32,650 bases of DNA, taken from contig RBNJ01000340.1 of the NCBI GenBank assembly GCA_003990765.1, positions 1-32,650 of the forward strand. The letters are read 5' to 3'. This document shows, piece after piece, positions 2,163-32,650 of this stretch. Made by a program: the position numbers and the translations under genes. This DNA is from Jimgerdemannia flammicorona. Its lineage: Eukaryota. The stretch's first letter is position 1, and each line of letters starts with the position of its first letter. Under the pieces are notes generated by a model. That model was given only the letters and a program-made list of their open reading frames with translations. It searched no databases and was not told the origin of the DNA.

Positions 2163-2164
2163 GA

Positions 2165-5358: not shown

Positions 5359-5497
5359 TTAGTAATTGTATATACACGCGTCATTCTCAACAAGCCGCCG
5401 CCATCGACTTACAATTGGCATAAATACTGGTCTTCTTGCCCTTCCAATTGCTTAACTCCAACTTCCAATCCACCAAGAACCAATTAACACCTCCAAT

Positions 5498-7641: not shown

Positions 7642-7669
7642 CCCCCCCCCCCCACACACACACACACAC
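7642..7669. repeat. Poly-C / (CA)n microsatellite
   Basis: C run followed by acacacacacacacac. Confidence 0.9.
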
Positions 7670-7770
7670 CGTGTATATACATACAATAAATATTAACCGA
7701 AGAAATAAACCGAATTTATAAGGGATGACGAGTAAGCAGGTCCGATATCTGTCCAGCTAAAAATTCCATC

Positions 7771-9376: not shown

Positions 9377-10176
9377 AATGGTGTCAAGTGTTTGCGTGTT
9401 TTGTTGGCTTGAGTCTGGAAAGGGGAGGAGTCGCTCTTCAAGCTTTTGAGACGGAGAGAGGAGAAAGATGTACGGTTTGTTTGCGTCGATCAACGATTTT
9501 CATGGAATAGTGGTAGCACGGAATGGCTTGTGATGGTGCGAACCAAGGTTTCAGAAGCCTCAATCTAAAGTTTCTTAGTCATTAAGTCACCTTCATGTAA
9601 TCGCATTTATATCGTTGTATATATATTAGCAGTTGGACGTCCCCTTGAGACAAGGCTTCGATATTGTCACGACCCAAGGAACAAGGATATTCTCATGCCG
9701 TCACCAATGCCTGGAAACCCGTTTTAATAGAAAAGCTAAACTAATTTGACCACCCTAACAGCGCACGGGACCTTGCAATTAAACCTGATGTAGACAGGTT
9801 TGTGTCCCCCGCAATGCAAAATTCCGTGGATATGTGCACCTCTCTCGTTTGGGGTGGAAGAAAGTGAGCATGTGCAGACCTTGGTGCTTTGCAACAGCAA
9901 AAAAGATGAAAGAAATTAAAAATAAACTCGATTTTTGACAGAAGCGAAGGTATTTTGTCTGCAAAATGGGAAATTACGTTTGCACAAAAGGGGACAATGT
10001 AATTATATATGCTTCATGAGAAAAAAAGCCCGTGACGCCACAACCTGTCAAACGATATTTTATGACTTCACTTAATTATCCCTCCTTGCTTTTAAAACTA
10101 AACCCCTCTATTGTGGATTGTACGTTTGTATGAATACATGCATTTTAGGCAAACAAGAGTGGCAATAGACTTAAAT

Positions 10177-10203
10177 TCACGTGATGTTTAGATGATGACG
10201 TCA
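10177..10203. promoter_or_regulatory. E-box (TCACGTGA) and CRE (TGACGTCA) palindromes upstream of the RFC gene
   Basis: TCACGTGA at 10177-10184 and TGACGTCA at 10196-10203, about 60-90 bp before the ATG. Confidence 0.45.
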
Positions 10204-10265
10204 CATAATTTAATTTTTGTGGCTGGCTGACACGCTGGCACGCTGCGCGTCTCGACATCCCAACC

Positions 10266-11378: not shown

Positions 11379-11864
11379 GGGACGGTGGAAGTCCCGTGGC
11401 GGACGGCGTGCTGGGTGAATTTGTATCGGAGATTTGTATCAATGCGCTCGGGATTTGATTTGTTGTGAAGCTTTAAAGGGCAGAGCAAATCTTTGAATGA
11501 TGTCTCAAATCATAATGTCGTTTTTTGAGTCTAAGTGGAGCAAACAAAGCGAGCGCTTAATGCTTTCTTTGTATGTGTACATATGTTTAGTTATGGTGTG
11601 AAAAGCTTTTTTTTTTTTTGGTTACTTCTATTCAGTTCGTCGTTCAATTCAATTAAAGATATAATTCGGTATACAGAGTGGTACAGCAACCGGCTGGAGC
11701 TCATCGGCATCTGTTACTACTTTTTGAAAACAACCTCGTTATGGAAAGCAAGAAAAAAGAAACGCAATTATAATCATGAAGATCTATCATTTACAGCAAC
11801 GCCGAACCCACAAATAAATTCCCCAAAGTTCGTTTTAAAAAATCAACTCTGCCACGCTCCATTC

Positions 11865-13196
11865 CTAATTCTTCTCCTTATCCCTTTTCTTCTTTTTCGC
11901 TTCGTTGTTCTTCGCCTCGACCAGCGACCCCTTGTCTTCCACGGTGTCATCTGCCTCATCACGTCGTCGCTTCTTATCTTTCCCGTTCTTTGCTTTCTTG
12001 TCCTCCCTTTGCTTTTCCATACTCTGGTGTCCGTTTCCGTTCTCATCACCTCCCACTTGATTTACCGTATCGTTCATGGATGATGAGGACGTCGGGGGTA
12101 GTAGGGCGCCTGTCACAGTGAGCATGTCGTTTGCTTGGACGAGGCTAGTGAAGGAGAGTGTGACAATCAGTTGATGGATCATATATGCTTTTTTCATAGT
12201 TCCTTGGTATGTCTGTGGTATGGCGGCCGAACGCGAGAAATAAAAAAAAATGTGGCACATATACGTACTCAACGACTGTAAAGATCACAACTCCGTCCGT
12301 GGCGCCCACGCTCTCCCCCGTCTTCTTTATGACCCACTCGCCGTTCTGCGTCCGCTGCTTGTTGAACCCTTGATCCTCGCCCTCCGCACCCTCGGCGTTC
12401 GGTGCCGCGGGTTCCTCCGCTGGCGTACCCGGAAACGAGGACGGCCGCCACTCGTAGTGTGCCGTCGGAATGAATTCGCGCGGGATGGAAGCGTTGAAAG
12501 TGCCGTAGAGGAGGAGACCGATGTGGTCAGCAGATTGGAGATTGATGGTGCCGACTTGGCGAAAGAAAATGGAGAGGGGATGGTGAGGGAAACCGAGTTG
12601 CGCATACGGATTGCTTCTCAACCTGCAATACATGCGCCTGCTACCATGAGTGCATTCGAGCACTCACCTAGCTTGGATCCTTTGACAGGCTTCCACACTA
12701 GCAGGTCAACCGCAATCCAAAAGTGGCAGTATGGAGAGTCGTACATGATGCGGGCGTTCGGTTGCATGATTTTGAGATTCGAGTGAGCAAGAACTACGCC
12801 GTCAAATTGGGGGACGTATCTGTGTGTGCCCAGGTTCCATTGATACAATATCGTTAGCACACTAATAAAGAAGCTGACCCAAAAGCACAATTTCGGCGCG
12901 GAGGCCTCCGTACACCGCAGAAGAACATACCTCATAAGAAACGCATTCAACTGCTCGTTGACGCCATCAGCAGCCTGGCCGACCCAAAGCGGGGCGAGGT
13001 GGATGTATATACGTGCGCGAACTTGGTTGAAAGGGGAGGAAGCGGTGTCCTTCTGTGAAGATACGACGGCGGTGGATGCAGAGCCGTCGCCCTGGCTGGC
13101 GGTGGACTGCTTCTTGTGTTTCTTCTTTGTGGCGGCGTCGCTGTCCTCGGGGTGCTTGCGTTTCTTTGAGGGCCGTTCCTTGTGCTCAGCAGCCAT
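11865..13196 (-). CDS. RPA43: DNA-directed RNA polymerase I subunit RPA43; exons 13196-12931, 12819-12668, 12554-12269, 12144-11865
   Basis: YIHLAP...QLNAFLMRYVPQFDGVVLAHSN...SPYCHFWIAVDLLVWKP..G..LVGTINLQSADHIGLLLYGTFNASIP, MLTVTGAL, Lys-rich tail; canonical splice sites. Confidence 0.92.
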
Positions 13197-14058
13197 GGTT
13201 ACTTCAGAGCGGTTAAAATGAATTTTTTGTTTTGTTTTATTTGTTACCGACCTACAAAATGCAAGTCACAACCCATTATAACTTCTGTTCTGCAGAAACA
13301 TTCCCTACACTCGGAACGGCCATGACGTGGCCCAGTTCCACAAGGACGGCTACCACCTAGCACGACGCCGAGGCCAACATGAGCGCTGCGGGTATACCAT
13401 AAAGTACATGTCCACTCGACTACGAGAAGAACCAGGGTTGCAGGGCTCAAGATTTGGTTGGCAAGGGGGAAGGATATCGCGGGGAACATCGCAGAATCCT
13501 TACTGGATATTGAGTACCTTTGAGTACCTGCGTCTTACATTTAAGTATATGTGTACACCAAGTATGCCATGTATGTGGCGTAGTTTTATGATGCTGGGCA
13601 CAGGCGGTCGAATACAATTTCTGCGCGTCGATAGTGTACGTCGTAAATTGATGTGGGGATGTCCTGGAAAAGCTGGCTCTCAATTGGCATTTTGGTATCT
13701 TGTCTGATGCGAACCAAAGCCATCGACCAACAGCCGATATTTATTATTATTATTACAACACTCGCCCGCTCTTTCCTGCCCTGAGCGAAGAACGATGACC
13801 TTGTAAACGATTCTAAAAGCATTACCCTCGAAAATAGGGCGATCGGGAACACAAACCCGATGTAAAACAAGACTTAGATATAATTGATATGTATAATTAT
13901 ATATTTAAGACCGTCCACCATTTTATGGGGCTTTCATACCGAAAGTTCTCGTCCATGGCCATCACCTATTTTCTACCCAACCTTACACTGTTCTCCAATT
14001 CGTCCATTCGTACTCGGGCTTTCCACCAAACAGCCTTTTCTAATATCTCTTCTCCCAT

Positions 14059-16172
14059 TTATAACTCCTTCTCCTTTCCTTTGCTGGTCATGTTCTTATC
14101 CTCAGCCTCCAGCGCGGTCAGTCGCTCGACTAGCCCTGGGTGCGAGTGGTTCCACGCCGAATACAACGGGTCGACGTTGAGGTTGTTGCGGTTCTCGATG
14201 TGAAGTTTGAGAAGGGCAGAGCGAAGCTGTGCGTTGTAGCCCAACTTGCTTGCGTAGGCGTCTGTTGATCGCAAGGTATACGCGCGCACAGAAGAGAGGG
14301 AGGGAGGGGAGAAAAGTGTGAGCAACACGGTGAAAATTCAGACGGAAAAGGCTTTACAATTGACTTTTGGACATCAAACTCACCGGCCTCGTACTCGTTC
14401 TTGCGCGTATATACGTTCTGGAGGAAGGCGACGAGGTTCTCGGCGGGCGAGTAAATGTACTGCGGATTGAAAAGTACGCGTCAGTTCGATTGTTTCGCTG
14501 GATCGAACAAAGAACAATGCGACTCTCGTCAAGAAATCGCAACATACCTGGAAGAGCAAGAACCCAATTAAGGTCGGTCTCGCGGCGAACCCGAATGACT
14601 CGTACATGGCGTCGTTGTTGATGAAGAAGGAGAATTGCCAAAAGACCAAGAGGAGGTGCAGCTGGATTGTGACTAGCATTTTGATCGTGTGGTTTTGGGC
14701 CCAGTGGCCGAGCTCGTGGGCTTTTTTTTTTTTAAAAAAAAAAGTAAGTAGGTACACAATGAGGACGAATACATGATGATACCGATGTCGGCGATGGTAG
14801 CGGAAGCACGGTATTGTCATGGATTACTCGACCATCCCCTTTCCATAATCCAAATTTCACTCACCTAGTACCGCACAGATCTCCTCGGTGCCTGCCTGCT
14901 CGAGCAAGGTGTCGTATAGAACTATTCGCTTGTTCTTGAAGAAGCCATAGAAATAGGCGTTGGAGTGGGCGCTCCGCTTGGAGCCGTCGATTACGTAAAG
15001 CTGGCGCAGTGGGAAGCTAATGCGCGAGGCGAGCTGCTCGATCGCCTCTTTGAGGTCGCCTTCTTGCAAGGGGGTCACCTTGTTGAAGAGCGGCTGGATT
15101 ACCGTAGGGTATATGGTGATCACGAACATTTGGAAGGCGATGCTGTTGGGGGGGAGATGAACATACGATATCGGTTCAGATGTTCATATGCGCTAAACTA
15201 AGAGATAATAGATCAAGTTTGCTTTCTGTCTTTTTCCCTCCCCACCCTGCATCGAGATCCACGCAAGCGAACTCAAAAAAGCAACGCACATGAATACCCA
15301 AACCCAGAAATAGAACGTCTCCCCTGTCGCCTTGATGATCCACAGGAAGGCAGCCAGGACGGGGATCCCGATGGCACCGCCCAGGAGGTGGCCCTTGAGC
15401 AGGTCCATGAAGAATAGCCCCGCAGTCTGTTTGTTGAATCCATGACGCTCCTCGATGACGAAGGTGGAATAGAGCAAGACGGGCAGGCCCGAAACGGTCG
15501 AAAGGAGCGAGAGGAGGACGTAAAAGATGATCGATTGGGTAATCTGTTGGTGGCGTTACATGGGCCAGAGGCGTGGTTAGGAAACGCGCTAATGTATTAA
15601 AGGATGCACCATGTGTCGCTTGTTGCCACAAAATTCAGGGATAGGACGGAAATGGTTTCGACGCTTCGCTTGGTGGTTGGCGCTAACACATAACACTGGT
15701 GTTCCTCATCTAGCTAAACAATCAACCTTCCCGATTTGTGCATTCCGGCATAGCTATTCCCATGGCAAGAGTCCCGCCAAATGGCACTAACCTCGTATTC
15801 AGGGCCATACCCGCCAACTCTCAGCATCCAGGTCCCGCTTAAGTCCCAAAGCCACGGAAGCGCGCCAAAGAGTATGAAAACGGTGGTCTCGAGTTGCGAG
15901 TACGACCCGGCCACAAACCCAAAGCGCGCTTTATCGGAACCGTAGGCCTGAGCCTTGTCAAAGTCTTCCTGCGATACGATGTCGACGACGGCCTTGGGGC
16001 GGTTCTTCTCCTGCAGCTTCCTGTACTGGCGCCAGCTGAGGGAGGGGGGGATGGAGTGAGCGACGGTTGGAGAATAAGGTGGCGAGATATAGATAGTATA
16101 CCTCAGATATAGATCGAATGCGTAGACGAGGTAGCTGAATGCCAAGACATATTCCTTGTATGGGGTTGTCAT
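14059..16172 (-). CDS. STE24: CAAX prenyl protease 1 (Ste24/ZMPSTE24, M48A); exons 16172-16102, 16035-15792, 15543-15290, 15142-14865, 14720-14548, 14459-14384, 14261-14059
   Basis: [53 protein letters not shown] (HExxH), [15 protein letters not shown]; all introns GT-AG. Confidence 0.95.
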
Positions 16173-16417
16173 GCTCGAGTGGGTAGGAGAAGGGGAGAAA
16201 GAGATGATTCGAGTGGCTTGGAACGACCGTGCAGGAACCGGCGTGCTGGGTCATGACGTAACACTGTGCACCCCTTGCAAGGGGCGGTGACGTCAATGCA
16301 AACGAAAAAGCGAGTCCCCACGAAACAAGCCAACTCCGCTTTCCCAGCACCTCTTCTCTTCCCCCGTCAAAGCCAACACCTCCCCCACTCGACCTCTCGC
16401 TTTGACCCACCAGTCCA
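16173..16417. promoter_or_regulatory. Compact bidirectional promoter (STE24 / endosulfine) with two CRE-like sites and a 14-bp palindrome
   Basis: 245 bp between divergent ATGs; TGACGTAA at 16254-16261, CCCCTTGCAAGGGG at 16271-16284, TGACGTCA at 16288-16295. Confidence 0.55.
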
Positions 16418-17167
16418 ATGCTTCCTGCCAAGAAGAATAAGATCGATATCAGTGTATGAACCATACTTGAGCTTCAACCTTCTCCCTTATTCTGACTTGT
16501 AAACTCGAAATAGAACACTTGACCATTGTTGAACTATAATTCATTTGAACTTTCGTTAACCCTGTAGAAACTGTCTCCTGAGGAACAGAAGCTGTTCCGT
16601 CTGTACGGCAAGCTGCCGGACCGCAAGGATGTGCTGGCAAACAAGCTAAAGGTGAGCATTATGGCGGCTGCGGACTTGACACTGTGCATGCTTACACAAG
16701 CGGTACAAAGTGAATTCTAAACCCTTGACCCTTGAATAAGTGTCATGACACACAGACTGCATGTGCGCAGTAATCACCAAACCTCTCCATATCGCGGATT
16801 CCGGACATTTAGAAGACTCTTCTCATCCACGCAAAGACACCTCATCGCACAAGTAACCTATCAAAATGCTCATCGATTTCGACCGTCCAATTTCACGCCC
16901 CTTTCCCCTCCCCTCCTTCAGGAACGCAAGTACTTCGATTCCGGCGACTACGCCCTCTCCAAGGCCGGCAAGGCGGACTCTGTCGGCTCCCAGCACCCAT
17001 CCCCCGAAAATATCCCGCACTCGAACCCGACCACCAAGGACAACGCTAGCCCCACCAAGGAGTCCTCGCTCGTTCACGATACGACCGAGAACCTGGGTTC
17101 TACACCGGCTGTGGTTGCCGTGAAACCCGCGGAGGAGGTGGTGGCGGCGGGTCTCGAGAGCTCGTAA
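16418..17167 (+). CDS. IGO1: Endosulfine/ARPP19-family protein (Igo1-like); exons 16418-16453, 16568-16651, 16922-17167
   Basis: Spliced product MLPAKKNKIDISKLSPEEQKLFRLYGKLPDRKDVLANKLKERKYFDSGDYALSKAGK...HPSPENIP; FDSGDY Greatwall/Rim15 phosphorylation site. Confidence 0.92.
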
Positions 17168-17694
17168 AAGTGGGGTATGCCGAGGAGATGCAGATTGTAA
17201 GCGAGGCGATCGTGAGGTAGAATGACAACGGCGGGATTTTCCGACGTTTTATGCTTGTTCGTGATTTGCTGGGCGTTTGGTTGGATACCGTGCACGCGAA
17301 AGAGTCGTGTGCTGCTGCGTTGGCGAGGTTTGATGAAGGATGGAGAGGAGCATTCTGGAATGCGTGGGCCGCGTTCCTTCAAAATTCAAACCCTTTGCGT
17401 TGTCCGGATACACTGCTGTCGATGTTTTGTTTACTTCGTTTTGTGATTGCTTATTGTCGTTCATTCGTCTTTGCTTATTTGTCTTTATTGCTTTCTTCGT
17501 TTTCTTTCTGTCCTTCGGTTTCCTTGGACATCTTTTTTCTCCGGAATTATGGTGCGCAACAGTATCTTTTTACTTGGCAACACCATATCCATCCACACCT
17601 TCCCGCTCTTTTAGTTTTTACCCATACCTTCCACATCCATCCTGTCCCTTCCTCTTCTTCCCCCCCCCCCTTTTTTTTCTTTTCTATTTTTGTC

Positions 17695-19325
17695 TCATAA
17701 AGTCTCCTGCTGGCGTGAGTTTAGGCCCTCTTTGGCCTTCACCTGTACAAAAGCGCTGCTCGCCAATATATACACGAGTACATGAGATGGACGTTGAAAC
17801 TGTCTTTGGGATTGCGGTGTTATTTGGATACGAAACTCGAACGTGTCGGGGTCAGCGTAGGGTACGAGAAGAATCTGATACTTCAAGTCGGTCGATCTGA
17901 TTACGTGCTCAAATCAACTGGCATCTCAACCTTATTCCCTATATTTGGCAACCCAGCCGAATTTTGACATGTTAGATGTGATCAATATCCAATAGCAAGT
18001 CCGACGGAGGCGAGATCCGAGCATGCCGAGGCTTCCTTACGTCCTACGGCCCTCAAGGATAGATATCCTTTGATAAACTCACCTCCGAAGTTTACAAACC
18101 GTTTTCTGGGGCAAGCCGGTAGACGTCGCCCCCATCGGCCCTGCGGTATCGCTGCCCAAACGAGACCGCGGCGACCATGTCCCCCAAGCAAGGAGGATAG
18201 GGGAGAGTTGTACGACTTGTTCCTCAAGCGGGTCTTGACAATGAAACTTTTGAGTTTCCACCTGCAGATCTCGACTGGATTGTTCAATTGTTCTGGACGA
18301 TGATGTGCGACATGTGCGACATAGATTTGCGTTGTCCTATCACATGACCTTTTGCTGTTACACCTAAAATGGAACGCGTCACGACTGGAGAAGAGCAGTT
18401 CAGACAGCGAGAAGCTTGTAATCTTCCAAGTTAAATACTATGAGGAGCACGGCCAGTTAGATAATACAGTTACCTTTCATCTGACTATGTACCCGCTCCC
18501 TGTCAATCACCGAGAAAAGCTTGGTGTTGCCATCTGACAAAGTGTATCCAATGGTGACGCTTACATGGATGGTCGACTCAATACCGAATTTCGCTATAAT
18601 TTTTATTTTTTATCAGAATTCTTCCCTTGATCAAGTTTCCCATCTCCTGCATGTTAGTACATATTTATTTGCCATGGAACCTTCGCATCCATCCATTTCA
18701 CTTAGTATAACGATCACGTCTGATCGTCTCCTATTTCTATTTCTTATTTTATTTTATTTTATTTAAGGGGGCGGGGGGCGACACAGATTACCTCCGCAAA
18801 CTCATTGACCAGGCTCGGTGAGTTTTAAGGCATGGCGATGATGACCCAACCAGCGGTGTCTCCCCAGATAACGTGAGCGGATTTGCGACTTCAATTGGTA
18901 GGTTTCCTTTCACAAGTAAATTCAATAGGTCGACCAAGGCAATATAATAGCTCTCAGCTTTTTCTAAAGCATACAAATATTGTCCATACGTATTTCCACC
19001 CACCAAGCAAATATCGAGAGGGAAATACGTGCAAACTTGGAAAACTTGGAACAATTGCACAATTTGACGATACAACTTTGAGTGGGCCTCGTATCACATA
19101 AGTATTAAGGACCATCCCGTGCACGGTTTTCCCGAATCCTCTTGCCCCCGAAGCTACTCGAATTCGCTCGCCGTATACCTTCTTGAGGTCCGGTGGTGTA
19201 AGCCGGTTCGTGCGCGCCACGGACACAGATGTCGAAATTGATGTGTAGGAGGCGTTTTTCCTATCCAAACCGGGATTATTCAATGGTTTTAGATATTTTA
19301 ATATTTGACAATGCTTTAAGAACAT
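17695..19325 (-). pseudogene. Spliced, frameshifted gene relic with a Walker A motif (Crinkler-like P-loop protein?)
   Basis: IRVASGARGFGKT (GxxGxGKT); donor gtaatc at ~18790, TACTAAC branch point at ~18654-18660 and acceptor at ~18647 on the minus strand; further open minus segments (AKFGIESTIHV..., STDLKYQILLVPY...). Confidence 0.4.
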
Positions 19326-19855
19326 TTTTATTTAGCAATTTTGAGGAATTAGTCGATCTTTTATTTATATTAATTTAGTTTAGTGCTTTAAAAACTATAA
19401 TATTTTATAATTAACTTTGAGGCCAAATTTACTTTCTTTTAGTATAATTAGAAAATAATTCATATATAGTTATCAAGCAAGTTATACTCTTTTTTATACT
19501 TTGTAAAGTCTCAAATAGTTTGTTTATCTTATTAAACAAATAAAATAGCTGAAGTTACTATTTATTAAGTCTGATTTAATTTATTAATTTAATATTCTAA
19601 TTATGTTTTGCTTTAATAATAACATACTTAAAATAAATTATGTAATATTATTAATATAATAGAATATTATATTTGTAAATTATTTTATCAGAAAATTTAT
19701 ATTTTACTTATTATTAAATATATTTTATATTTGATTATTTAGTTAATTATCAAAATTTTAATAATGATATCTATATTTGCTAAATATATAATATATATTA
19801 TTTTATTTTATAACTAATTTATTAGAAATAAGAAAATAACTTCTTATTAAGCATA
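19300..19855. repeat. Extremely AT-rich insert, probably a decayed repeat
   Basis: Abrupt switch to near-exclusively A/T sequence with almost no CpG; no termini identified. Confidence 0.4.
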
Positions 19856-20016
19856 TTGAAGAAACGGAACAAGGATGAAGTTCCAATATAGTCTTTCCTT
19901 ATCTGATAAAACAGTGTTTCAATCTCTCCTTAAATGTTCCTGTGATACATATACATTTACCATAACCGGAAATTTGGCTATAAACTAACAAGCGTGATCG
20001 CCATCCTGATGAATTG

Positions 20017-21100
20017 ACTCAGTGGTTGATATCTGATTCGTTTCTAACCAGAATGTTGTGAAGAATAGCCAGATTGTTCCGACCTGTTACTATGTTTGGG
20101 TGCTACTATTTCCAAGATTTCCGGCGCCTGTTGGAACAGCATTTTCGCTTTTACGTACCTACCCCGGAAAAGGTAAAGCACCCAAGTTGTTCATAGTTGT
20201 TGCTGCGTCTGGGTTTTCTAGTCCTGACACCTTCTCGTGAATTGTCAGCGCCAGTTGACAGCGATTCCGCTGCATCATGCTTTCCCTGGTTATAGTAGAT
20301 TGTTCAGAATTAATGCTGTGTGTGGGTGCTCTTGTCAGAATTTTTTCTTGCAGATTTTCAGCACCTGTTGGTACAGTGGCTCTGTTTTATTATGCTTGCT
20401 CTGTTCTTTGTAAAACAAAACCGGATTTTTCAGAGTTTTTACTGTATCCATGTACTCTGGTCCCACCACAATTCTGCAGATCACTAGTGCTTGTTGGTAT
20501 AGCTGTTCTACCTCATTACATTTACTCTGGCTTTGGTAAAATTCAGCCATATTATCCAGAATTGATGCTGTACATGGGTGCTCTGGTCTCAACATCATCT
20601 TGAGGATCACCAGAGCCAGTTGATGTAATACTCCACCTTATTATACTTGCCCTACTCTTATAGAGTACAGCCAGGTTGTTCAGAGTTAATACTATATACT
20701 AATGCTCTAGTTCTAATACTTTGTTGTAGATTGCTAATGTCTTTTGATATAACCATTTTGTCTCATTTACTTATTCTATTATTAGTAGTAATAGTTAGGT
20801 TGCCTATAGTTAATACTATATCTGAGTATTCTGTTCTCAAAATCTTATTAGAGATCTCTACTGTTTATTGATAAAGTGGCTCTATCTTATTATACTTACT
20901 CTGTTCTTTATAGAGTACAGAAGATTGATCAGAGTTATTATATATTCTAATTCTATATTAACTTTAAAAATTGCCAATATCTATAAGTGCATCAGTTTTA
21001 TCTTATTATACTTATTTTAATTAAAGTAGAGCTAAGCCAGATTGTTTAAAATTATTACTATATCTGAGTTCTCTAGTTAAGGTTTATTATTAATATCAAT
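20017..21100 (-). pseudogene. Kinesin-light-chain-type TPR array (about 9 x 42-aa repeats), NLR-like sensor pseudogene
   Basis: PEHPCTASILDNMAEFYQSQSKCNEVEQLYQQALVI, GPEYMDTVKTLKN, ENPDAATTMNNLG, HPNIVTGRNNLAIL; ~125-bp periodicity (20302, 20428, 20553, 20678, 20803, 20927); stops and frameshifts. Confidence 0.8.
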
Positions 21101-21852
21101 GAGATAATATAATCTTCATTTAGTAAGATCTATAACTTTATTTATTTATTTCTTAAAAAGTAAGAGAACAGACTAAGTAGTAACAAGAGAAGCTAAATTA
21201 ATTATCTTTAACAATATTCTCTAGTTTTTAAATAGCTTGAAGATAGACTAAAGACTGATAAATTCTTAAAGTTTTCTCCTCTTTTTAATAGTTTTAAAAA
21301 AAAAAAAAACTCTATAATATTGTTAAAGAGAAGTTTCTTTTTCTTTAGATATAATATATATCTAAAATCTCTTAAAGTACATAACTTTTATATAATATAA
21401 TATAATTAGATAATATGTAAGTAGCTTTGACTACTTTTTCTAATAACTCAATAGTAATATATAGTTCTTCAAAGATCTCTATAAAACTCATGAGATAATC
21501 TTAGTAGTTGTCTCAGAGGAGAGTAGTGTAAAATTCTAATAGAGTAAATTTAGTATCTTCAGTTTTAACTCAAATATAATTACTTTTAATAAAGTTAACT
21601 ATCTTAGCTTTTATCTAATTTATATTTTTTTCTATAAAATATATAATATCTTAAAGAGTAATTTCTTTAAGATATATAATATATAGTTTAGAAAATATAA
21701 TAAAAGGTTTGATAGATCCAGAGAGTCTTTTTAATTTATCTAATAGTAAGTAGTTCTTCTTAAATAAGATCTTAATAGTTTTGTTCTACAGTTTTTTTCT
21801 TAAAGTCTATAATCAATTTTATATTTATACTAAAAGACTAAATAGTAAAAAG

Positions 21853-22094
21853 TAATACTCAGAATAATTAAATTTGATCTTAATTTGATTTAATTCAAAT
21901 TGAATTGAGGTCTAATTTAATTTATATTTAAATTCAAATTTTAATTTTCAAAATTTAATAACTTAATAAAAATATGTCCAAATTTAACAAATATTAACTT
22001 ATTAAATTTATCTTATTTAGAGAAATCTAATATAATAAAAATTATATTTTAGTTGAGTTATTATATTTTAAAGTTTGACTTTTGGAGATATTTA
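21853..22094. mobile_element. Second, truncated and inverted copy of the hAT-type MITE at 393-843
   Basis: Starts taatactcagaataattaaattt; 21940-22075 aligns with the reverse complement of ~545-700 (ttttcaaaatt.aataact.aa..aaaa.at.t..aaatttaa...). Confidence 0.65.
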
Positions 22095-22160
22095 GTTAAG
22101 GTAGATCTTCTTAATGTTATAAAGATATAGATCTTTAGAAGAGTAGAGTAATAAATATAT

Positions 22161-22627
22161 TGTAATATAGCAGATGCTTACTTTTAAAAGTATGTCAGAT
22201 TTCTGTATCTTGAAAACTTGACTGTTCTGACTCTTGCAGAGTCTCTTGAAGTTGTAGGGGAGAGTGGGTAAGTTTGAAGTGTATCTGCCTGTAGACTTAC
22301 TAGTTCCTTTGCTATCTCTTTGCTTTAAACTATTTCAATCTGAGGTTTATTCACTCAAAGATACTGGGTTATTTATATAAGTTTACTAGCTATGAGATGG
22401 TTACTAGATTATGTGGCTAAGTTATGAGTCATTTAACACTTTGTGAAATATTTCACCAGTTGCAAAATGCTATACTATATTGAGAAGCTTGATCTTGCAC
22501 TTTGCAAAATATTTAGCAAATGGCGAAATCAGGGACTGCTAACTATGTGGCTATACTACTTTGGGACTGGGTGCGATCAAGTGTCTGTTTCCTATTTCCT
22601 TCTTCTGAATCTGGCTATACTGTCACA
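22161..22627 (-). repeat. 3' LTR
   Basis: tgtaatatag...tactgtcaca; colinear with 28408-28874, about 91% identical by manual alignment. Confidence 0.95.
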
Positions 22628-22664
22628 ACTTCCTCCTGAATAGATAATCTCATCCTTGAAGCAT

Positions 22665-23126
22665 CTATTCAAACTCCCAGGCTTCAATGGTCTGTATGAT
22701 CTTGTATTGTATGATTTGTTACATTACTGTTTCCCAATGGTGTCATCTGACTCAGTCAAAGTCTGAGAGAGTCACTTCTTACAGATAGACTAGTGCTGGT
22801 TCATCCTCTCAGAATAGCTTGTAGATTCTCTTAACAATAGTGATCTGGGAATAGGAGAGCTAGCATTCTGCAATCCAATTTTCTTTGGTCATTTCTGGGT
22901 ATTGGTTGAGTACTTGGCCAAGTTTGAAGTACTCTTGAAATTCATTTCAATACTGATAGGCCTTAAAGTGTGAGATTTGAGAGAGATGAGTCTGTATAAT
23001 GCTTTGGATACTATTATAAGACTCCTCTATGGTCAGAGGTTCAGTGGTATACCATTGTCTCTCAATGGCTCTTTGGGCAGCACTAGTGATCTTGAGTACC
23101 ATTACAGTACTTTTGTTACTGGCCAT
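22665..23126 (-). pseudogene. Accessory ORF (153 aa) between integrase and the 3' LTR, function unknown
   Basis: 462-nt indel-free frame MASNKSTVMVLKITSAAQRAIERQW...EYFKLGQVLNQYP...VKRIYKLF*EDEPALVYL*EVTLSDFD...WEFE; its 7 internal stops can all revert by single transitions. Confidence 0.7.
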
Positions 23127-26100
23127 GATATTTCTTAAATCAGTTTCAGTAAATGGTAGTGGAGATTATTGTACCTGAGGGTTTTCATAGCCAAAAGGTG
23201 GTTTCTTTTATATCTTGCACAAGGTAAGGTTCTTCCCACTTGGCTCCAGTTTTCATGACCAAGAAGCTTCTACCATATTCTAGTATACCAGAACTTCATC
23301 TCCTATCTTAATAATCTCTAGGAGTTTGTGGGTCTTTTCCACATTCCTCTGTTATAATATCTATACCTTGGTTATGTAATTCTCAGCCTTCTTTCTGATT
23401 TGGTGTAGTCTCTGTATTTTCATGTCCACATGTTTCCATACAGTATCTCCATTGGATGATAGGGTTCTCTGAGAACATTTTTCTTTAAACAGTATTTCTC
23501 AAGAGATAAAGTGGGTACTTTGTAATTAGATATCCTGGAGAGCAGATAATGCTATTAGCAGATAGTGATCTCAATTTTCATAGTTATCACAGATCTTGGC
23601 AATAAAATTCTTGAGGGTCTTATTGGTCCTTTCTGCTTGTCTATTTTCTTGGGGGTGATAGGCTGTGGTCCGAATGCACTGGATCTTGTACTTCTTATAG
23701 AGAACCTCAAAGAGCTGGTTTATGAATTCTATTCCTCTATCTGTAGTTACTTATATTGAGGTCTTGAACTGGCAGATGATTTTCTTGTGAAAGAAATCAG
23801 CAATTGACTGTGCATTGGCTTCCATAAGAGATCCTGCTTCTATCTATTTTGTAAAAAGGTCTATGATGACAATGATGTATTGGTTGCCAGTCAAAGTCAA
23901 GGGTAGAGGACCGATTACATCCATTGCAATGTGGGTGAATGGTACTGGTTCTATGTGTGCTGATCCTGGAGCTTGATTTCATTGGTCTTGTTTCTGTTTC
24001 TAGTATTTAATATAGGTTTTAATGAATTTTCTGATATCTTCCTCCATCTCTGACCACTATATTGTTCTTCTTGTCTTGTTATATGTATTTGTTCCTCCTA
24101 GATGACCAAGTTCATGTACTGATTTCATTGCTTGCTCCTTCTTGTGTTCTGGTATAACTAGTAGTTTTCCTTTCTTCAGTGTTTCTCCATCAGTTTCAAA
24201 TTGTTTCTATGTTCTATTGATAATCATTTGTATCCATTCTTCCAAATGTTGGGGCATCTTTTGCTGTCCCAGATATATGATAATTCCATAGTAGAGCTCC
24301 TTATTTATGATTGATTTGTTGGTTAGAAGTAGTTCAGGGTGTCTGTGAGAGGGCATCTGCATTGACATTGGTTCTTCCAGAGTAGTGTATAATGGTTATA
24401 TCATAAGCTTGCAACTTCATTATCCATCTGGCATAGATTCCTTTGGGTTGTCCAGTTGTTAGTAGCTAGGTGAGAGCTGAGTGGTCTATTTGGATGGTGA
24501 AGTATCTTCCAGCCAAGTAGTAGTGGAACTTTTCTATGGCCCAGATGACTGCAAGGCATTCTAACTTATAGGATTCATATTCTTTTTCAGCTCCTCAGGT
24601 TCTACAGCTGAGGTATGCAATGACATACTCCACTTTATCTTTCTTTTGAGCTAGGACTGCTCTTAGTCCTTATGCACTTGTATCAGTCTGTAGGATGAAT
24701 TCTTGAGTCCAGTCAGGTCTTCTGAGGATGGGTGCCTGGGTCAGTCTGACCTTGAGTTCATCAAATGCTTTTTGTTGTCTGCCAGTCTACTAGAACTTAG
24801 TATCCTTCTTGTTAAGTTCGTAGATTGATTCTATAATATTAGAAAATTCTCTAATAAATCTGCAATAATAGGAGGTAAGTCCCATGAAGGCTTGAGCTTC
24901 TGTAATAGTGGTGGGTCTTGGGTATGCTGCCACTGCTTATATCTTGAGGGGGTCCATGTGTGTTCCATCTCAGTTGATGATATAGCTGAGATAGGAGATC
25001 TCAATTTTTGCAAATTTGCATTTTTTGGGCTTGATGTATAGACCATGCTTTCTCAGTCTTTCCATTATCTGCTGGATATACTGCAGGTGTTCTTCTGGTG
25101 TCTGGCTGTAGATAATTACATCATCAACATAGACCATCATCTATCTTCCTATGTTATAGTGGAAGATTTTGTTTATCATTCGCTGGAAACTTGCTGGTGC
25201 ATTGCACATTCCAAATGGCTTTCATAGATAGATGTAGGTTCCATCTGGGGTGATGAAAGCTGACTTTTCACTTGCCATGTCTGTGAGTCCGATTTGGTGG
25301 AATCCTGAGTATAAGTCCAAAGTGCTATAGTACTGTACTTTGTCTCTCAGTGTTATGAGGATGTCATTGATGAGGGGCAGTGGTTGGCAATCCTTTTTGG
25401 TAACCATGTTGAGCTTTCTGTAGTCAATACAGAGTCTTGGGGCAAATTCTCCAGACTTGCTGCCCTTTTTCGGGGCTAGTACAACAGGTGAGGACCAGGG
25501 GCTGCTGGCTTCTTTAATGATGCCAGCTTCTTCCATCTGCTTGATTTCTTCTCTGAGCCATTCTCAGTAGGCTGGCAGGACAGGTCTTGCCTTCTGATAA
25601 ATTGGTTCAGTATTTCCAGTATCTACTTCATGATAGTAGTGTGGGGTCTTTCCTTTGATATCCTTGAAATCTGTGGCAAGGATATCTTCGAATTCATGGA
25701 GTATTTTCTTGAGTTCTTTCTTGAGTGGAAATTTGTTTCTGATGGTGTAGCTGTGCTTGCTTGTGTTTTCCTCCTTCTTATGCTCAAGTTCAGTGATCTT
25801 GGTGCTAGTAAATACTCCTCTTTCTGTAGATCCAAATCCTTTCTTTCCTCTTTTCGTTTCCTCCAGCTTCTTAACTTCTATGATCTTTGGTTGTAGGATC
25901 GGAAAGATCAACATTTGCACCAATCAGTCCTTCTTCTTGACTGGAAATGGGATTGTAGGATTGTGATTCCTAGCAATGAGTAGAATTTCTCCAGGATAGT
26001 CTGAATCGATGACTCCTCCTTCGATTGTGATTTCGCTTCTAGCCAGGCTGCTTCTTGTCTTGAGAATCCTGATATGATCCTTTAGAATGGTCATCTCCAG

Positions 26101-28293
26101 TCCAGTTACAAGTAGGGTAGTTGTCTGGGGTTCCAGTATGGTCTCTTCTACTGTAGCGATATCCATTCCAGCTGTATTTTCTGACTTGTATTCTGACAAG
26201 ACTGCATCAGGGTAGATCTTTCAAATCTTGACCTTGATTTCTTTTTCATCATCACTATCCTCCAGGAGGGCTGGTGGTTCATCATCTTCCTCCTTCTCTT
26301 CTTCCCTGATCTGTTTTTTGAGAGCTTTCTGCCTTCTTTCCTGGTAGATCTTCTTGATTCCAATGGTATACTGGTAGCAATCATTGACATGCTCCATATA
26401 GTACATCTTGATTCCATAAGAACAGACTTCTTGTGGGGCATAACCTTCTGTAATCTTCTTGCACTATTCTTCTTTACTTATCTATCCAACTTTCTTCTTC
26501 TTTGGAGTAGTCACCATATAAGCTTCCTCTTGCTTGCTCTCTTCTTTCTCCATGTTGGGCAGGACTCCTTTGTTGACATTGATGGGAATTTGTATCTTCT
26601 GTCCCCAGTAGGTGATCTGTATCTTCTGGGCATTGAGATCGATTACTGCCTTGGCTTTGTGAAGCTATTGATTGCCAATAAGGATGTCATAGTTAGTGGC
26701 ATTAGTTATAATTACATCTACTGAGATGGTTGCTCCTCCAATCTTGATAGGAACATCTCAGATCTTTTCCAGAGATGTGGCTCTTATGCTATCAGCTGTG
26801 ACAAATACCAGCTTAGTTGCTTCTTCTACATCCCAACCTAGGCAGTCTGCTACCTTCTTGCTGAGAAGACATCCTCCTGCTCCTATATCAATGATGGCTT
26901 CAAAGATTCTATCTTCGATTTGGTATGTTGCATAAGCAGAGGTTTTGCGATTATCCTCACTTTCTTCTCTTAAGTCCTCTTGAACATTATTGGCCTTAGT
27001 TATCTTCCATCCTTATTCCTTAGTTATTTTGGCAAGTCCAAACCTCATTTGCTGTCTGAATGTTGGGATTTTTGTAAGCTGACCAAAGGTTGCATTGACC
27101 TTTTGTTGACTGAGGTCCTTGAAGATATCATACTTAAAGGTCTTGGTCTTGCAAAGCTTCTTTTCTTTTTCTCCTTCACTGGCTGGAGTGGCTTCTCAGA
27201 TGATATCTTGAACTGCTTGCTCTAGCTCCATATCTTGGTCCATCCCTTTGGCTTAGCTTTCTGTGACAGTTTCCATCCACTTTTCCACTGGGTTCTTCTT
27301 GGGTCTTCCTGGTGGTCTCTTGTAGGGTTCTTTGTGAACATCCTTTTTGGTAGTCTGAGCAGGATAGACCTCCCATTCCTCTTCATCGGATTCTCCAATT
27401 TCTTCAAAGGTGATTGTGTTGGCCTGTTTCTTATTTCTAGTAGCATTGCTTGATTGAGCCTTGTGCTTGGTTTTACTCATGTATTTATAGGAGTAGTGGC
27501 CTTCTTCTCTACAAGTATAGCAGGTGCCTTTCTTCTTGTCTGAGGTAGTGGCAAACTTCTGGACAGGGCAGCAGTCTCTTTCTCTGATCTCCTTTACTAC
27601 ATCCCCCAAGTGGGCAGTCATTTCCACGAATCTCTTGGTAAGTTCCTCCAAAGGGTCACTGTTCTTTTGCTACTCTGTAGCTTTGGGCTGAGGTGTGTTT
27701 CAATTGATCATTGTGGTGGGGATCACACTGGTTGACTTAGGTGCCTTGATTCTGACTCCTGTGACTCTCTCCATTGTATGGTCTTGTGGATGTCTGGCTA
27801 TCTAGTATCGCTGAGCATAGGTGACCTTTTGTGGCAGATCCAGAATCACTGGTGATGAGCAAATGGCCATGGCTATTTCTGGATGGACTCCTTTCATGAA
27901 GGTTGCTTCAGCTACTTGATCTTGGATAGTAGTAGCATAATCTGCAAGGATTATCTGATATCGAATTCTGGTATAGAATGTGTTTAGATCCTTGCTCATT
28001 TCTTGGCATATTGTATTGAGCTGATCCTTCAGAGCTTGCTTGATCTCATCTGTATAATATATATTTCAGAGCCAGGTCTTCTGTACTGTCAGTATAGTAT
28101 TGGCATTATTTCCTGCATAGGTTGCAGCTATAAATGCTGCTCTGGCAGGACCTTGTAGGCTGAAGGGCACAAGGGCTACTTGCTGTACTGCTGTTAGGGT
28201 CCTTACAGTGGCATACTGCTCGAAATCATCAATGAAGGTGATGATTGATTCATCTGAGGTATATCTATGGAATACTGGTGGTCTCATATCCAT
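23116..28293 (-). pseudogene. gag-pol polyprotein (single frame through RT), with many premature stops
   Basis: Gag with CYTCREEGH knuckle; protease AIIDIGAGG; RT SPWSSPVVL, RLCIDYRKLN, PFGMCNAP, YVDD (25120-25131); RNase H FILQTD, LECLAVIWA; integrase HELGH, IAMDVIGPLP, YHPQ, KWE.PY. Confidence 0.93.
25825..26240 (-). pseudogene. dUTPase domain embedded in pol
   Basis: All five trimeric dUTPase motifs: AGMDI, RSS, GVIDSDYPGEI, LVQM, RGKKGFGST. Confidence 0.93.
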
Positions 28294-28407
28294 CTTGTCT
28301 GGGTATTGGGGCTCAGTTTGTATGGTTGTTTGGATAGTGGCAGTTGTTTATTATTCAGCTTGAAAGTGAGGGATTTGTCTTGAATCACTAGTCAATGGAT
28401 ATCAAGT

Positions 28408-28874
28408 TGTAACATAGTGGATGCTTACTCTTGAAAGTATGTCAAATTTCTATATCTTGAAAACTTGACTGTTCTGACTCTTGCAGAGTCTCTTGAAGTT
28501 ACAGGGGAGGGTGGGTGAGTTTGAAGTATATCTGCCTATAGGCTTATTAGTTCCTTTGCTATCTCTTTACTTTAAACTATTTTGATCTGAGGTTTATTCA
28601 CTCGAAGATACTGGGTTATTTATATAAGTTTGCTAGCTATGAGATGGTTACTGGATTACATAGCTAAGTTATGAGTCATTTAATACTTTGCGAAATATTT
28701 CACTAGTTATGAAATGCTATACTATATCAAGAAGCTTAATCTTGCACTTTGCGAAATATTTAGCAAATGGCGAAATTGGGGACTGCTAACTATGTGGCTA
28801 TACTACTTTGAGACTGAGTGTGATCAAGTATCTATTACCTATTTCCTTCTTTTGAATCTGGCTATACTGTCACA
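28408..28874 (-). repeat. 5' LTR
   Basis: tgtaacatag...tactgtcaca; followed on the minus strand by a degenerate PBS-like tgatatcc... Confidence 0.95.
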
Positions 28875-29160
28875 ATATATAATAAATAAAACTTATTATA
28901 TATAAAATATTATAAGATTACTACTAAGTAATTTTAGATATTTAAATAATTATCTAAAAATAAATAGAGTTCTTTTAATTTCTTTTATTAATAATTATAT
29001 ATCTATATTATAAAAATTAATAAATAAATTAGACAAAGTTATTAGATATATAATATTATTTAGTAATTATATTATTTTATTAATAATATCAAATAGAATT
29101 AGTTATTATTAGATATATATAATATTACTTTTTTAAGTTGAGTAACTTTATATAATATTT

Positions 29161-31030
29161 ATAACAGTTTATTATATAGTAATAAAGTAATTAAAAATTT
29201 CAACAGAATTTCCAATAGAGTGGTTATTTTTTTTTTTTTAAAAGTTACTTAAACTCTCTTATTTATTACCAAACTAATATATACTAACTATAATATACAA
29301 ATGTCCTACCTCTACTCAATCTCTCTGAGGGGTCTACCTTCTATTCTTTTATAATTAAAAAAAACTACTTCTCTGATAGTCTAAATTCTCTTCTTATTCT
29401 TTGTATATATTCTTTTTATCAAATCTTAGTAAAGACTCCCCATAGGTCTCCATCTATCTATTATCTATTCAACAATTCTAATAATAGCTACTCTCACCTC
29501 ACTACTCTAATTTCTAATAATAATCTCTATCTATTCTTAAAGATACATATATAGTTAATATTCAGATAGTCTAATCTAAACAACAAGAACCTACTCTACT
29601 AAAAGTCATTTATTCTCAGTCTCTTTCACTAGATATAACTAAAGGACATCTCATCTTTCTTCTTTTATCTCTATAGGTCACATCTCTAGTTAGCTCTCAA
29701 TTATTAACTAAAAATCTGATAATACCTCATACTTACTCAGCTAATGTTCTGGAGTCTATACTACTTTACTCTTCTATCTCACATTGAAGCACTCTTTATA
29801 GTCAACAACTCTCTATCAACCAAATATCTCAATCTAAAGTTCAGTATTATATTCTACTATAGTAGCTATTATTATACTACTTAGAATCTAATAAAGTAAT
29901 TATAGATATATTTATATATAGTATAACTATATATAGATATATCTAGTACATCATATTTAGCTATAGCCCCAAATCTATATAAATACTCTCTGTACTGAAT
30001 ATGTTATAACCTTAGTCAGAAAGTAGAAAAAAAGTAAAAGTCAATTATCTGATATACTTAAAAAAAGAATATTTATTAAGAGTCACTTAATTTATAGAAA
30101 ATTATAATACTTAGGAGAAACACCTGTCAAGAACTACTGCTAGAAGTTATAAGCTTTATTTCTTTCTACTTTGGTTCACTTTTTAATATAAAGAAAAAGT
30201 CTACTAATTTGGTTTACTTACTAGATTAAGCCAGAAATCTGTTATATTTTAGTCTATTTCTCAGATAAGACCAAAAAACTTAAGAATTTACTTTTTAGAT
30301 AAAGTTAAATAAACTCAAGAATTTGTTCTCTAGATGAAGCTAGACAAATTAGAAAATCTGCTTTATTATAATTTAATAGTAGTAGAAAGTTACTTCTATC
30401 TATAAGCAATCTCTTCTCAAGAAGTCTAGAGTATAGATAATCTTTAGAAGAACTTGAATTATTCAATCTTGGTCTACTTTCTAAATAAAGTCTGAAAATT
30501 TTATCATCTATACTTTTCAAGAAGTCTGTCCAACTTAGACAATTCAAATTCTGAAGAATTACTATTATCTACCTGACTTGAATAATTCAAATTCTGAAGA
30601 ATTACTATTATCTATCAAACTTATCATATTATGTAAAATCTATATTCAATAATTTATACTATCTAAAGAAATCCATATCATCTAAAGAAATCTATACTAT
30701 TTAAGAATTCTGCTAAATCTGTATCAAATTAAAAATCTGTTAAATTATTCATATTATATAAATAAAAGAACCTATATCTATTTTTTTTAAAAGAAACTAC
30801 AGAATATTTTATTACTTTTTATTAAAAAAAAGAAAAATATAATAGTTTATTATATAGCAATAAAGTGACTGAAAATTTTAATAGAATTTTTAATAAAGTA
30901 GTTAAAAATATATATTATATATAGTATAACTATATATAGATACATATACCCAGTATATTATATTTAGCTATAGTCTCAAAGCTATATAAATACTCTCTAT
31001 ACTGAGTATATTGTAACCTTAGTCTGAAAG
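29161..31030. repeat. Split direct repeats A1 (29161-29226), B1 (29912-30023), A2 (30839-30905), B2 (30915-31030) in a decayed element
   Basis: A = ataa.agtttattatatag.aataaagt.a.t.aaaattt.aa.agaattt..aata.agt.gtta; B = tatatatagtataactatatatagata...aaatactctct.tactga.tat...taaccttagtc.gaaag. Confidence 0.75.
30541..30610. repeat. 43-bp-period tandem duplication
   Basis: aattcaaattctgaagaattactatta at 30541 and 30584. Confidence 0.8.
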
Positions 31031-31619
31031 CTAAAGAAAGACTTAAAGCTCTGCTTTTTAATATAAGAATAAAGCAGTATTCTTATTTAGAACTCTCAGA
31101 TCCAACTTGTTAACAATTCTAAGTCTAATTAACTTGAAATACAAATATAGTATCTTTACTAATATAAGAATCTAAAAGTGATACTTAGACTATACTGCTA
31201 TAATAGATAATTGAAACTTAGTACTTCCTAGAACTTAGAGCTAATAGTTATCTTGATTATTCACAATATATTAATTCTATCAGTATATAGTTTTATTACA
31301 ATATATATAATTATTAATAAAGTAATAAAATATCTCTTATTAGAGTATAAAGATATATATATATGAGTTCAAGAATACTAAAGACTTATTTTATATTATA
31401 TTAATTTACATATACTTATTATATAGTTAATACAGAAGTTATAATTTTTACCAGTAGACCTTTAACTAAGTTATTTATTATTATCTAGTATAAAATTATT
31501 AAGCTTATATATATATATCTTATTCTGTAATATAGATAAATTTGATTGTAAAAATAAAATTATAAAGAATTATTTACATTTGTTTTTATAAATAAAACAT
31601 TCTTAATACTGGTCTGAAC

Positions 31620-32650
31620 AGTTATCCCTCTGGTCAGACTTATAACTTTCTTTTTATAGATCTGGTAGTATATCAATTATCTTATTATCTGATTATGAAG
31701 AGGAACGAACAAATACAAAATTGTTACCAATAAAGATTAACCAAGAATTGAATATATTCAGTCTCAGCAAAGTCATATTCTGTTTTAGAGATCTGGTTTT
31801 AGTATGGGTTTTTTAGATACTGATGCCATATTCTAAGGATGAACAGGGGAATAAGCAAATATGCCCAGATTATAGATCAAGATCCATCACGCAGACAAAA
31901 ATGATGGTTCCCACAGTCCTTAAATACTGTTAAAATTCAGTTCCGTCATAGTTGCGTTCCTCTTTGGAGACTCGGTTAAGGCTCTGGCTGCCTCAGCGTC
32001 GAATTGTGGGCTGGGCTGAACCCTATCATGCAGCTGCAATAAATGGATCGCACATTTCTTACATATACTCAAGATTTAACTTGGCCAAGGCAATGACCCT
32101 CGTCAGCGATCTTGGCCGCGCTGACTCTTAAAAGTATGTCGGAACTGTGAACAGCATTGTGTGCAGCTGCGTAATGATATCAAGCTTATGCACTGTTTGG
32201 TTGTTTATCCCCTATTTATCTCCGGGGATCAACTTGGCCGCCGACGAGACCGAAGCCCTTATCGAATCGCGTTCTACCTCAGAGATATAGTTAGAGGCCG
32301 TGCCTCCTTAACACCGATTCCGTTGTCAAAATGCGAAAAAAGCATGAATGGATCGTGAGCTTGGCTTCATCACGCAGCCGTTCACCGTGCATTATATAGT
32401 TCTGAAATACATTTGAAATTGAGGTCGTATTCTGCTTCAGAGACTCGGCTATGGCAATGTGGTTGTCTGAACATGAAGAGATAAGCAACCACACAATATG
32501 CTTGATTACATTATATAACTGCACACAATGCTTCACACAGTTCCGGCATACCTTAAAGACCCGAACACTGCAGAATTCTAAGCACTCACAGAGCGATTTC
32601 ATTGCAGCAAGGTGCAATGAGTGTGGGCTTGGGCAGGACCTCGGGGGGGG
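31620..32650 (-). pseudogene. RI-like leucine-rich-repeat (NLRC3-like) protein pseudogene, probably continuing past the window edge
   Basis: AMKSLCECL, AIAESLKQNTTSI, AEAARALTESPKRNATMTELNF, SLKQNMTLLRLNI; fragmented frames separated by intron-like spacers. Confidence 0.6.

Follow-up and report, generated by a model that had tools for sequence, protein, structure and literature searches.

A cytosine-to-thymine (C-to-T) mutation process has acted on the repeated DNA of the window analysed here, a stretch of 32,650 nucleotides (contig RBNJ01000340.1) from the fungus Jimgerdemannia flammicorona. A retrotransposon flanked by long terminal repeats (LTRs) at 22161-28874, a tandem-repeat pseudogene and older relics were altered, while the adjacent genes were spared, and the mutability of cytosine followed the order CpG > CpA > CpC > CpT. 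On the evidence of this one locus, the process is best read as repeat-restricted cytosine deamination reaching beyond CpG. The host belongs to the Endogonales (Mucoromycota, Mucoromycotina) and is not an ascomycete. It therefore stands outside the lineages with established repeat-induced point mutation (RIP), namely Pezizomycotina, with RIP-like mutation in Pucciniomycotina. To our knowledge RIP is regarded as a process of Dikarya and essentially of Pezizomycotina, established in ascomycetes and a few basidiomycetes only.

The retrotransposon lies on the minus strand and is identified by its sequence as a member of Ty3/Gypsy (Metaviridae). Its two LTRs of 467 bp each, which in element orientation are the 5' LTR at 28408..28874 and the 3' LTR at 22161..22627, were located by a direct repeat search and aligned with MAFFT. 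The alignment revealed 43 differences, comprising 42 transitions (G/A 27, C/T 15) and a single transversion (T/A at LTR position 430), with no indels and an identity of 90.8%. An earlier note on this DNA had estimated about 43 differences, about 42 transitions, one transversion and no indels, and the exact counts are in agreement with it. When one third of ordinary changes are assumed to be transversions, the chance of finding at most one among 43 is P = 6e-7. Restricted to the 27 changes outside CpG, the value is P = 2.6e-4, and it rises to 0.019 at one fifth transversions. Both LTR copies were mutated, 18 of the 42 transitions falling on the 3' copy and 24 on the 5' copy if C or G was ancestral. 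Both strands were mutated as well (G>A 27/212 against C>T 15/160, p = 0.33), which on the sense strand of the element corresponds to C>T 27 and G>A 15.

The sequence context of these changes was counted with C or G assumed ancestral at every LTR transition and with both copies pooled. CpG was the most mutable context (16/44, 36%), followed by CpA (18/120, 15%), CpC (4/60, 7%) and CpT (4/148, 2.7%). The difference between CpG and CpA was significant (odds ratio 3.2, p = 0.0045), as was that between CpA and CpT (odds ratio 6.4, p = 0.0005); the differences between CpA and CpC and between CpC and CpT were not significant in the LTR pair. In total 26 of the 42 transitions lay outside CpG. No particular base was required 5' of CpG, as TCG (8/24), GCG (4/12), ACG (2/4) and CCG (2/4) were all mutated. 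Reciprocal CA/TG pairs, which mark an ancestral CpG, were observed at LTR positions 11/12, 176/177, 252/253, 321/322 and 370/371 and within 302-304; together with the 18 changes in CpA context (TG/TA, CA/TA), they bear out the reciprocal pairs and the many CpA-context changes described earlier. The reconstructed ancestral LTR had a GC content of 39.8% with 11 CpG and a CpG observed/expected ratio (o/e) of 0.61. The present copies have GC contents of 36.0% and 34.7%, and 2 and 4 CpG are left in them.

The LTR pair alone gives no direction of change, and therefore the pol coding region was used. Gag, protease, dUTPase, reverse transcriptase and RNase H share a single frame of 1345 codons at 24373..28407 on the minus strand, which contains 26 in-frame stops (TGA 11, TAG 9, TAA 6) and zero frameshifts. 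The six closest pol relatives are metagenome proteins (P0121-P0126) with at most 47% identity, and the direction test used the 195 alignment columns in which five or all of the six agree. The element differs at 46 of these columns: 22 differences are C/G>T/A and one is the reverse, the others being 11 transversion, 11 multi-step and one ambiguous. The non-synonymous opportunities in unchanged codons were 158 forward and 136 reverse, so that the asymmetry is significant (Fisher p = 3e-5). Of the nine invariant tryptophan codons (TGG), three have become TAG. Four stops occupy positions with W in the relatives (in all aligned relatives at three of them and in three of six at the fourth), and one stop, at position 1062, stands where all six relatives carry R. 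Single-step codon differences from the two best intact relatives run in the same C/G>T/A direction (169:53 and 125:41); the same codon comparison with two short fragments of 74% and 68% identity showed no asymmetry (7:9 and 15:14). The C-to-T course of change, which had only been assumed before, is confirmed independently by alignment of the coding region.

The composition of the window was compared with that of its gene island (2101..19400), which served as an internal control and contains genes for a short-chain dehydrogenase, RFC3, RPA43, a STE24-type protease and endosulfine. Measured over 2000-18800, the island has a GC content of 0.49 and a CpG o/e of 1.04. The internal region of the element (22628..28407, minus strand, 5780 bp) has a GC content of 0.41 with 21 CpG, a CpG o/e of 0.09, a CA o/e of 1.32, a TG o/e of 1.18 and a composite RIP index of -0.82. 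Its signature is chiefly one of CpG-to-TpG/CpA change, and by the composite index it is not RIPped. The CpG o/e of the LTR copies is 0.13 and 0.29, indicating that the interior is mutated at least as much as the LTRs.

Both flanks of the element are AT-rich relic blocks. The block at 28875..31800 has no CpG in the bins of 28801-31500 and one CpG in 31501-31800; over 28875-31500 its GC content is 22%, with CpG o/e 0.00, CA 0.64, TG 0.54, TA 1.19 and a composite index of +0.61. The block on the other side (19500..22160) has no CpG from 20701 to the LTR. Over 19000-22160 the GC content is 27%, with CpG o/e 0.66, CA 0.80, TG 0.86, TA 1.05 and a composite index of +0.18, and in the 1-kb windows starting at 20501-21501 the index reaches +0.40 to +0.70. 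A third AT-rich block at 1..2100 has zero CpG in 2100 bp and a GC content of 0.18-0.26, with 0.40 at its edge; over 1-1900 the values are GC 22%, CpG o/e 0.00, CA 0.97, TG 0.97, TA 0.94 and composite index -0.46. In 300-bp bins the CpG count is 0 over 1-2100, 20701-22500 and 28801-31500. The GC content of the AT-rich blocks is 19-27% by 1-kb window and 17-29% by 300-bp bin in the CpG-free parts, with one bin at 12%. The earlier description of the older repeats as near-pure AT was therefore overstated, while their AT-rich and CpG-free state holds. In the first genic bins (2101 and 32101) the CpG count jumps from 0 to 22-23 per 300 bp (o/e 1.24-1.26), and the borders between genes and repeat blocks are sharp at 300-bp resolution. 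Within this window, mutation is limited to the non-genic repeat blocks and the genes are spared. The bin at 1801-2100 has 40% GC yet no CpG and adjoins a bin with 23 CpG, the CpG border being sharper there than the GC border.

The content of the three AT-rich blocks was searched with Pfam on six-frame translations with stops read as X, and no transposon domain was found. The only match was the remnant of a TPR_10/TPR_12 repeat gene, NLR-like and not a transposon, at 20104..21050 on the minus strand (Pfam matches near 20177-20640, E 5e-14 to 1e-6). The array shows a 126-bp period and a 489/616-bp self-match that are visible only in the purine/pyrimidine alphabet, in which the identity of the self-match is 0.60 against a mean of 0.51 (standard deviation 0.02); the plain identity is 0.31-0.36. 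In the AT-richer half of the array 46 C>T and 46 G>A changes were counted against 23 T>C and 17 A>G, which are upper estimates as the scoring favoured transitions. Along its length the remnant has decayed into AT-rich DNA, and this non-transposon repeat seems to be under the same process. Two old dispersed repeat pairs were also found in the AT-rich blocks, one between 549-786 and the reverse complement of 21854-22078 and the other between 29887-30107 and 30889-31122. They contain gaps and a transition to transversion ratio of about 2:1 (170 matches, 34 transitions and 17 transversions; 173 matches, 32 transitions and 19 transversions). Since this ratio is ordinary and gaps are present, the transition-only phase appears specific to DNA that still holds C, with normal decay following once C is exhausted.

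The element itself retains all the hallmarks of Ty3/Gypsy, which are TG..CA LTR ends, a gag zinc knuckle, the order protease, reverse transcriptase, RNase H and integrase, and a polypurine tract; a dUTPase is present as an extra domain between protease and reverse transcriptase. The pol domains were found by Pfam on the translation of the interior with stops read as X, and all domains lie on the minus strand. The gag zinc knuckle (zf-CCHC) at 27490..27528 is a weak match (E 0.0035). It is followed by the retroviral-type aspartyl protease (RVP_2) at 26605..26952 (E 6.9e-7), the dUTPase (PF00692) at 25825..26196 (E 9.5e-21), the reverse transcriptase (RVT_1) at 24976..25470 (E 7.8e-31) and the RNase H (RT_RNaseH) at 24403..24780 (E 1.5e-29). 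The zinc-binding and core domains of the integrase (Integrase_H2C2 and rve) were detected at 23652..24155 in the next reading frame. The frame switches between RNase H and integrase, at 24200-24400 on the minus strand. The six closest relatives have the same order of protease, dUTPase, reverse transcriptase and RNase H, and no integrase domain is listed for them in the same open reading frame (ORF); the switch may therefore be native, being a frameshift or a separate ORF, and not damage. The polypurine tract CAGGAGGAAG, as read from the sequence, lies on the same strand at 22629..22638, one base upstream of the 3' LTR. A candidate target-site duplication, ATAT at 22157..22160 matched at 28875-28878, is of low complexity and so weak evidence for duplication; its presence at both flanks indicates that the insertion site was already AT-rich. 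The absence of indels, the single transversion, the kept polypurine tract and the long gag-pol frame without a frameshift support a young element, and with its 26 stops and depleted CpG it is young yet heavily mutated, as the earlier note had held. The dUTPase is common to the six closest relatives, and a uracil-excluding enzyme within an element destroyed by cytosine deamination makes a curious pairing. When metagenome contigs were scanned with a fragment of pol, 158 pattern matches arose and 0 were confirmed; the contig of the window is thus absent from that collection.

The identity of the host was established with the genes of the window. The top match of the RPA43 exon is the J. flammicorona protein P0277 (E 1.4e-57), which maps to the minus strand in three exons, 13196-12624 (100%), 12555-12262 and 12167-11868, and the RPA43 protein of a second J. 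flammicorona record differs by one residue. The next-best matches reach at most 57%, and the named ones among them belong to Mucoromycota and Zoopagomycota (47-56%). The RFC3 gene (10209-11378, plus strand) is intron-less, and its best named matches, with 66-75% identity, come from Mortierellomycotina, Mucorales, Basidiobolus, Glomeromycotina and chytrids; no ascomycete occurs among the best 120 of 8000 scored matches. Placement by RFC3 phylogeny had been proposed earlier as a check. In the RFC3 tree the lineage of the window stands alone, and all six placements compared survive approximately unbiased (AU) tests (p 0.23-0.34); this tool was set aside as undiscriminating and RPA43 was used instead. 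The Logan protein P0002 is 89% identical to RFC3, suggesting a related Endogonales-like organism in public reads.

The explanation that we favour, with a probability of roughly 0.6, is that repeated or heterochromatic DNA in this Endogonales fungus is exposed to methylation-linked cytosine deamination, with a DNMT1-family enzyme acting on repeat domains, and that single-copy genes escape. Such a methyltransferase would mark the cytosines of repeat domains, those in CpG densely and those in CpA to a lesser degree. The 5-methylcytosine (5mC) or an enzyme-bound cytosine would then be deaminated, and the T:G mismatch that arises would be fixed. Three stages of decay are represented in the window. 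The first is the young Ty3/Gypsy copy, from which some 90% of the CpG to be expected and 15-30% of the CpA/TpG sites are gone and which has acquired its stops with essentially no indels or transversions. The TPR-repeat pseudogene, recognisable in the purine/pyrimidine alphabet only, forms the second stage, and the third is the relic blocks of 17-29% GC, which have no CpG, are depleted in CpA/TpG and have TpA in excess. Unrepaired 5mC deaminates fast enough for a slow process to yield many transitions per transversion, and therefore the ratio of transitions to transversions alone is no proof of bursts. A point in favour of the methylation route is that DIM-2-like methyltransferase homologues are reported in Endogonales, and RID-1 from Pezizomycotina only (PMC9963178). 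The earlier note had left two readings side by side, a mutation system aimed at repeats or strong deamination of 5mC that reaches beyond CpG, and the evidence supports this hedged position.

Several observations weigh against methylation-linked deamination as the explanation. The composite RIP index is negative both for the young element and for the block 1-1900. Strand clustering, another of the checks proposed earlier, was not found: runs tests on the LTR changes gave no significant result and no sign of single-strand bursts. The transition-tolerant scoring of the TPR and older repeat-pair comparisons inflates transition counts where the alignment is poor. No near-identical second copy of the element was found, the best other family members (searched as short ORFs) having 74% and 68% identity, and only one LTR pair was available. 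A review also gives CpT as the preference of Neurospora DIM-2 (PMC13297926), and CpT is the least mutated context in the LTRs.

True homology-triggered RIP is the main rival and is considered unlikely. Duplicated sequences would be recognised by their homology, and an enzyme of the DNMT1 family, RID-like or otherwise, would deaminate them in bursts during some defined stage, pre-meiotic or another; RIP would then exist outside Dikarya. The transition-only changes on both strands, the stops without indels and the 6.4 times higher mutability of CpA than of CpT are all as in RIP. Relics with a composite index of +0.4 to +0.7 abut CpG-normal genes, as they do in RIP-shaped ascomycete genomes, and the TPR array, a tandem-repeat gene that is not a transposon, is degraded as well. 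Index-based hints from outside Dikarya also favour it, as 24.2% of the 1-kb windows of Zoophthora radicans are positive by composite index (PMC11105155). Nevertheless, the strongest target here is CpG and not CpA, the young element has a composite index below zero and lacks strand clustering in its LTR changes, while RID-1 has the restricted distribution noted above. Mutation in the interior is no lighter than in the LTRs, and the LTR-LTR duplication therefore does not by itself determine it, which also counts against RIP. A further point against RIP is that the genome of J. flammicorona, reported at about 240 Mb, retains more than 77% repeats (PMC10386755); the process, whatever its nature, has not kept the genome small. 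It remains doubtful, on the same balance, that Endogonales have a homology-triggered RIP-type defence through a non-RID DNMT1-family enzyme, for which the reported DIM-2-like protein would be an example.

Ordinary slow decay, in which CpG-only maintenance methylation and spontaneous 5mC deamination would be joined by a GC-to-AT-biased background mutation, is improbable. It is favoured by the high mutability of CpG (36% per copy), by the classic CpG-to-TpG/CpA signature of the interior beside genes with a CpG o/e of 1.04, and by the transposon CpG methylation without RIP reported for other Mucoromycota (PMC8647823). It fails to explain 26 non-CpG transitions with one transversion, the contrast between CpA and CpT, or the 22:1 excess of forward over reverse changes in the coding columns. 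Relics of 17-29% GC with CpA/TpG o/e of 0.54-0.64 are beyond the reach of CpG loss alone, and for these reasons ordinary CpG decay does not account for the whole spectrum, as the earlier note had allowed that it might. Very improbable is AID/APOBEC-type editing of single-stranded complementary DNA (cDNA) during retrotransposition, by which the LTRs would already have differed at integration. The target is a retroelement and the changes are C-to-T only, as such editing would have it; yet editing of minus-strand cDNA predicts G>A only on the sense strand, where C>T and G>A were both seen without a significant difference after normalisation, and the TPR pseudogene and flanking blocks, which are not cDNA, have decayed likewise. 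An artefact or mistaken host, whether as a contaminant contig from an ascomycete with ordinary RIP or as LTR differences created in assembly, is hardly credible. Room for it is left by the RFC3 tree, which by itself does not fix the position of the lineage, but the RFC3 matches without an ascomycete, the identity of the RPA43 of the window with the J. flammicorona protein and its near-identity with the second record of the species all speak against contamination. Genes and repeats moreover lie on a single contig of coherent structure. The ascomycete host with ordinary RIP that had been held out as an alternative is thus replaced by a member of Endogonales.

The process may be compared with known systems. 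Canonical RIP, which is RID-dependent and pre-meiotic and occurs in Neurospora crassa and other Pezizomycotina, has the context order CpA >> CpT > CpG > CpC in Neurospora. The window shares with it transitions only on both strands, confinement to repeats, nonsense codons without indels, AT- and TpA-rich relics beside normal genes and the preference for CpA over CpT. It differs in having CpG as the most mutated context, a young element with a negative composite index and a host within Mucoromycota. According to Clutterbuck and others, the Aspergillus/Penicillium type of RIP reportedly targets both CpG and CpA; this dual preference would be shared with the window, and the hosts there are ascomycetes with RID homologues. 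Passive deamination of CpG-methylated transposons, as in vertebrates, Agaricomycotina or the Rhizophagus type, resembles the present case in the loss of CpG and gain of TpG/CpA in transposons while genes keep CpG. Here, however, most mutations lie outside CpG and the end state is AT-rich relics rather than merely CpG-poor DNA. The consulted part of PMC9963178 reports no RID in Mucoromycota. Horns et al. (2012) described a TpCpG-specific transposon hypermutation in Pucciniomycotina and ascribed the plain CpG excess of Agaricomycotina to methylation (PMC3318451). The Pucciniomycotina process is likewise a CpG-centred C-to-T change in transposons, in a lineage described as without a recognisable rid gene and with the link to methylation unresolved; in the window, unlike there, no 5' T is required, CpA is mutable and decay proceeds down to 17-29% GC.

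Stajich et al. (2024) describe earlier observations of RIP as limited to Dikarya, and they attach major caveats to the Zoophthora radicans figure (PMC11105155). Their Entomophthorales signal is similar in being non-Dikarya, Ty3-rich and of RIP-like composition. It rests on a dinucleotide index of 1-kb windows in Zoopagomycota, whereas the present evidence is alignment-based, polarised and context-resolved and comes from one locus. The screen of 1,239 genomes by Badet and Croll (2025) found, in the parts cited here, RIP-like k-mer signatures unique to ascomycetes, in four Pezizomycotina classes (PMC12543289). In its Table S14 J. flammicorona is labelled 'no_rip' with k-mer counts n_noncoding 23, n_repeat 0 and n_both 0, and Endogone sp. 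has 13, 0 and 0. The experimentally RIP-proficient Leptosphaeria maculans shows the same type of profile (45, 0, 0), and file 13 of that study gives a 4.0-fold enrichment of TATA in the non-coding DNA of J. flammicorona. The k-mer profile and the TATA enrichment fit relics too decayed for repeat annotation and young repeats not yet AT-shifted. RIP signatures are reported absent in chytrids (PMC6572847), and Dallaire et al. refer to their absence from Gigaspora and Mucoromycotina (PMC8647823). Among the matches listed, no RIP analysis for Endogonales or Jimgerdemannia was found in titles and abstracts, a scope that excludes the genome paper of Chang et al. 2019 (New Phytologist), which may hold relevant remarks; nothing was found there pairing 'RIP-like' with 'early-diverging fungi'.

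Other features of the window were also recorded. A 193-codon ORF at 2165-2746 on the minus strand has no Pfam match, and the protein atlas gave a SPRY-domain lead (score 0.91) that is weak and of no help for taxonomy. A run of about 45 A bases at 165-210, in the first AT-rich block, may be the tail of a non-LTR retroposon, and a T-run lies at 17644-17686 at the edge of the gene island. Scans of the window for transfer RNA genes and Rfam families gave no matches.

In this window a transition-only process that reaches beyond CpG is documented for a Mucoromycota fungus, by evidence that is alignment-based, polarised and resolved by context. What appears to be new, on the sequence of one locus, is a RIP-like or 5mC-linked hypermutation with a preference for CpG over CpA in Mucoromycota. 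If the process is general, it would account for the AT-rich 'non-coding' DNA of Endogonales and would show that screens by index or k-mer overlook processes that have CpG as their first target. An early-diverging lineage would then also allow direct tests of where RIP-type defences come from and how they are linked to enzymes of the DNMT1 family. Should Endogonales indeed have a RIP-type defence, the 'no_rip' label would reflect relics too decayed and young copies too little AT-shifted for k-mer screens, and RIP-type mutagenesis would either predate Dikarya or have arisen at least twice.

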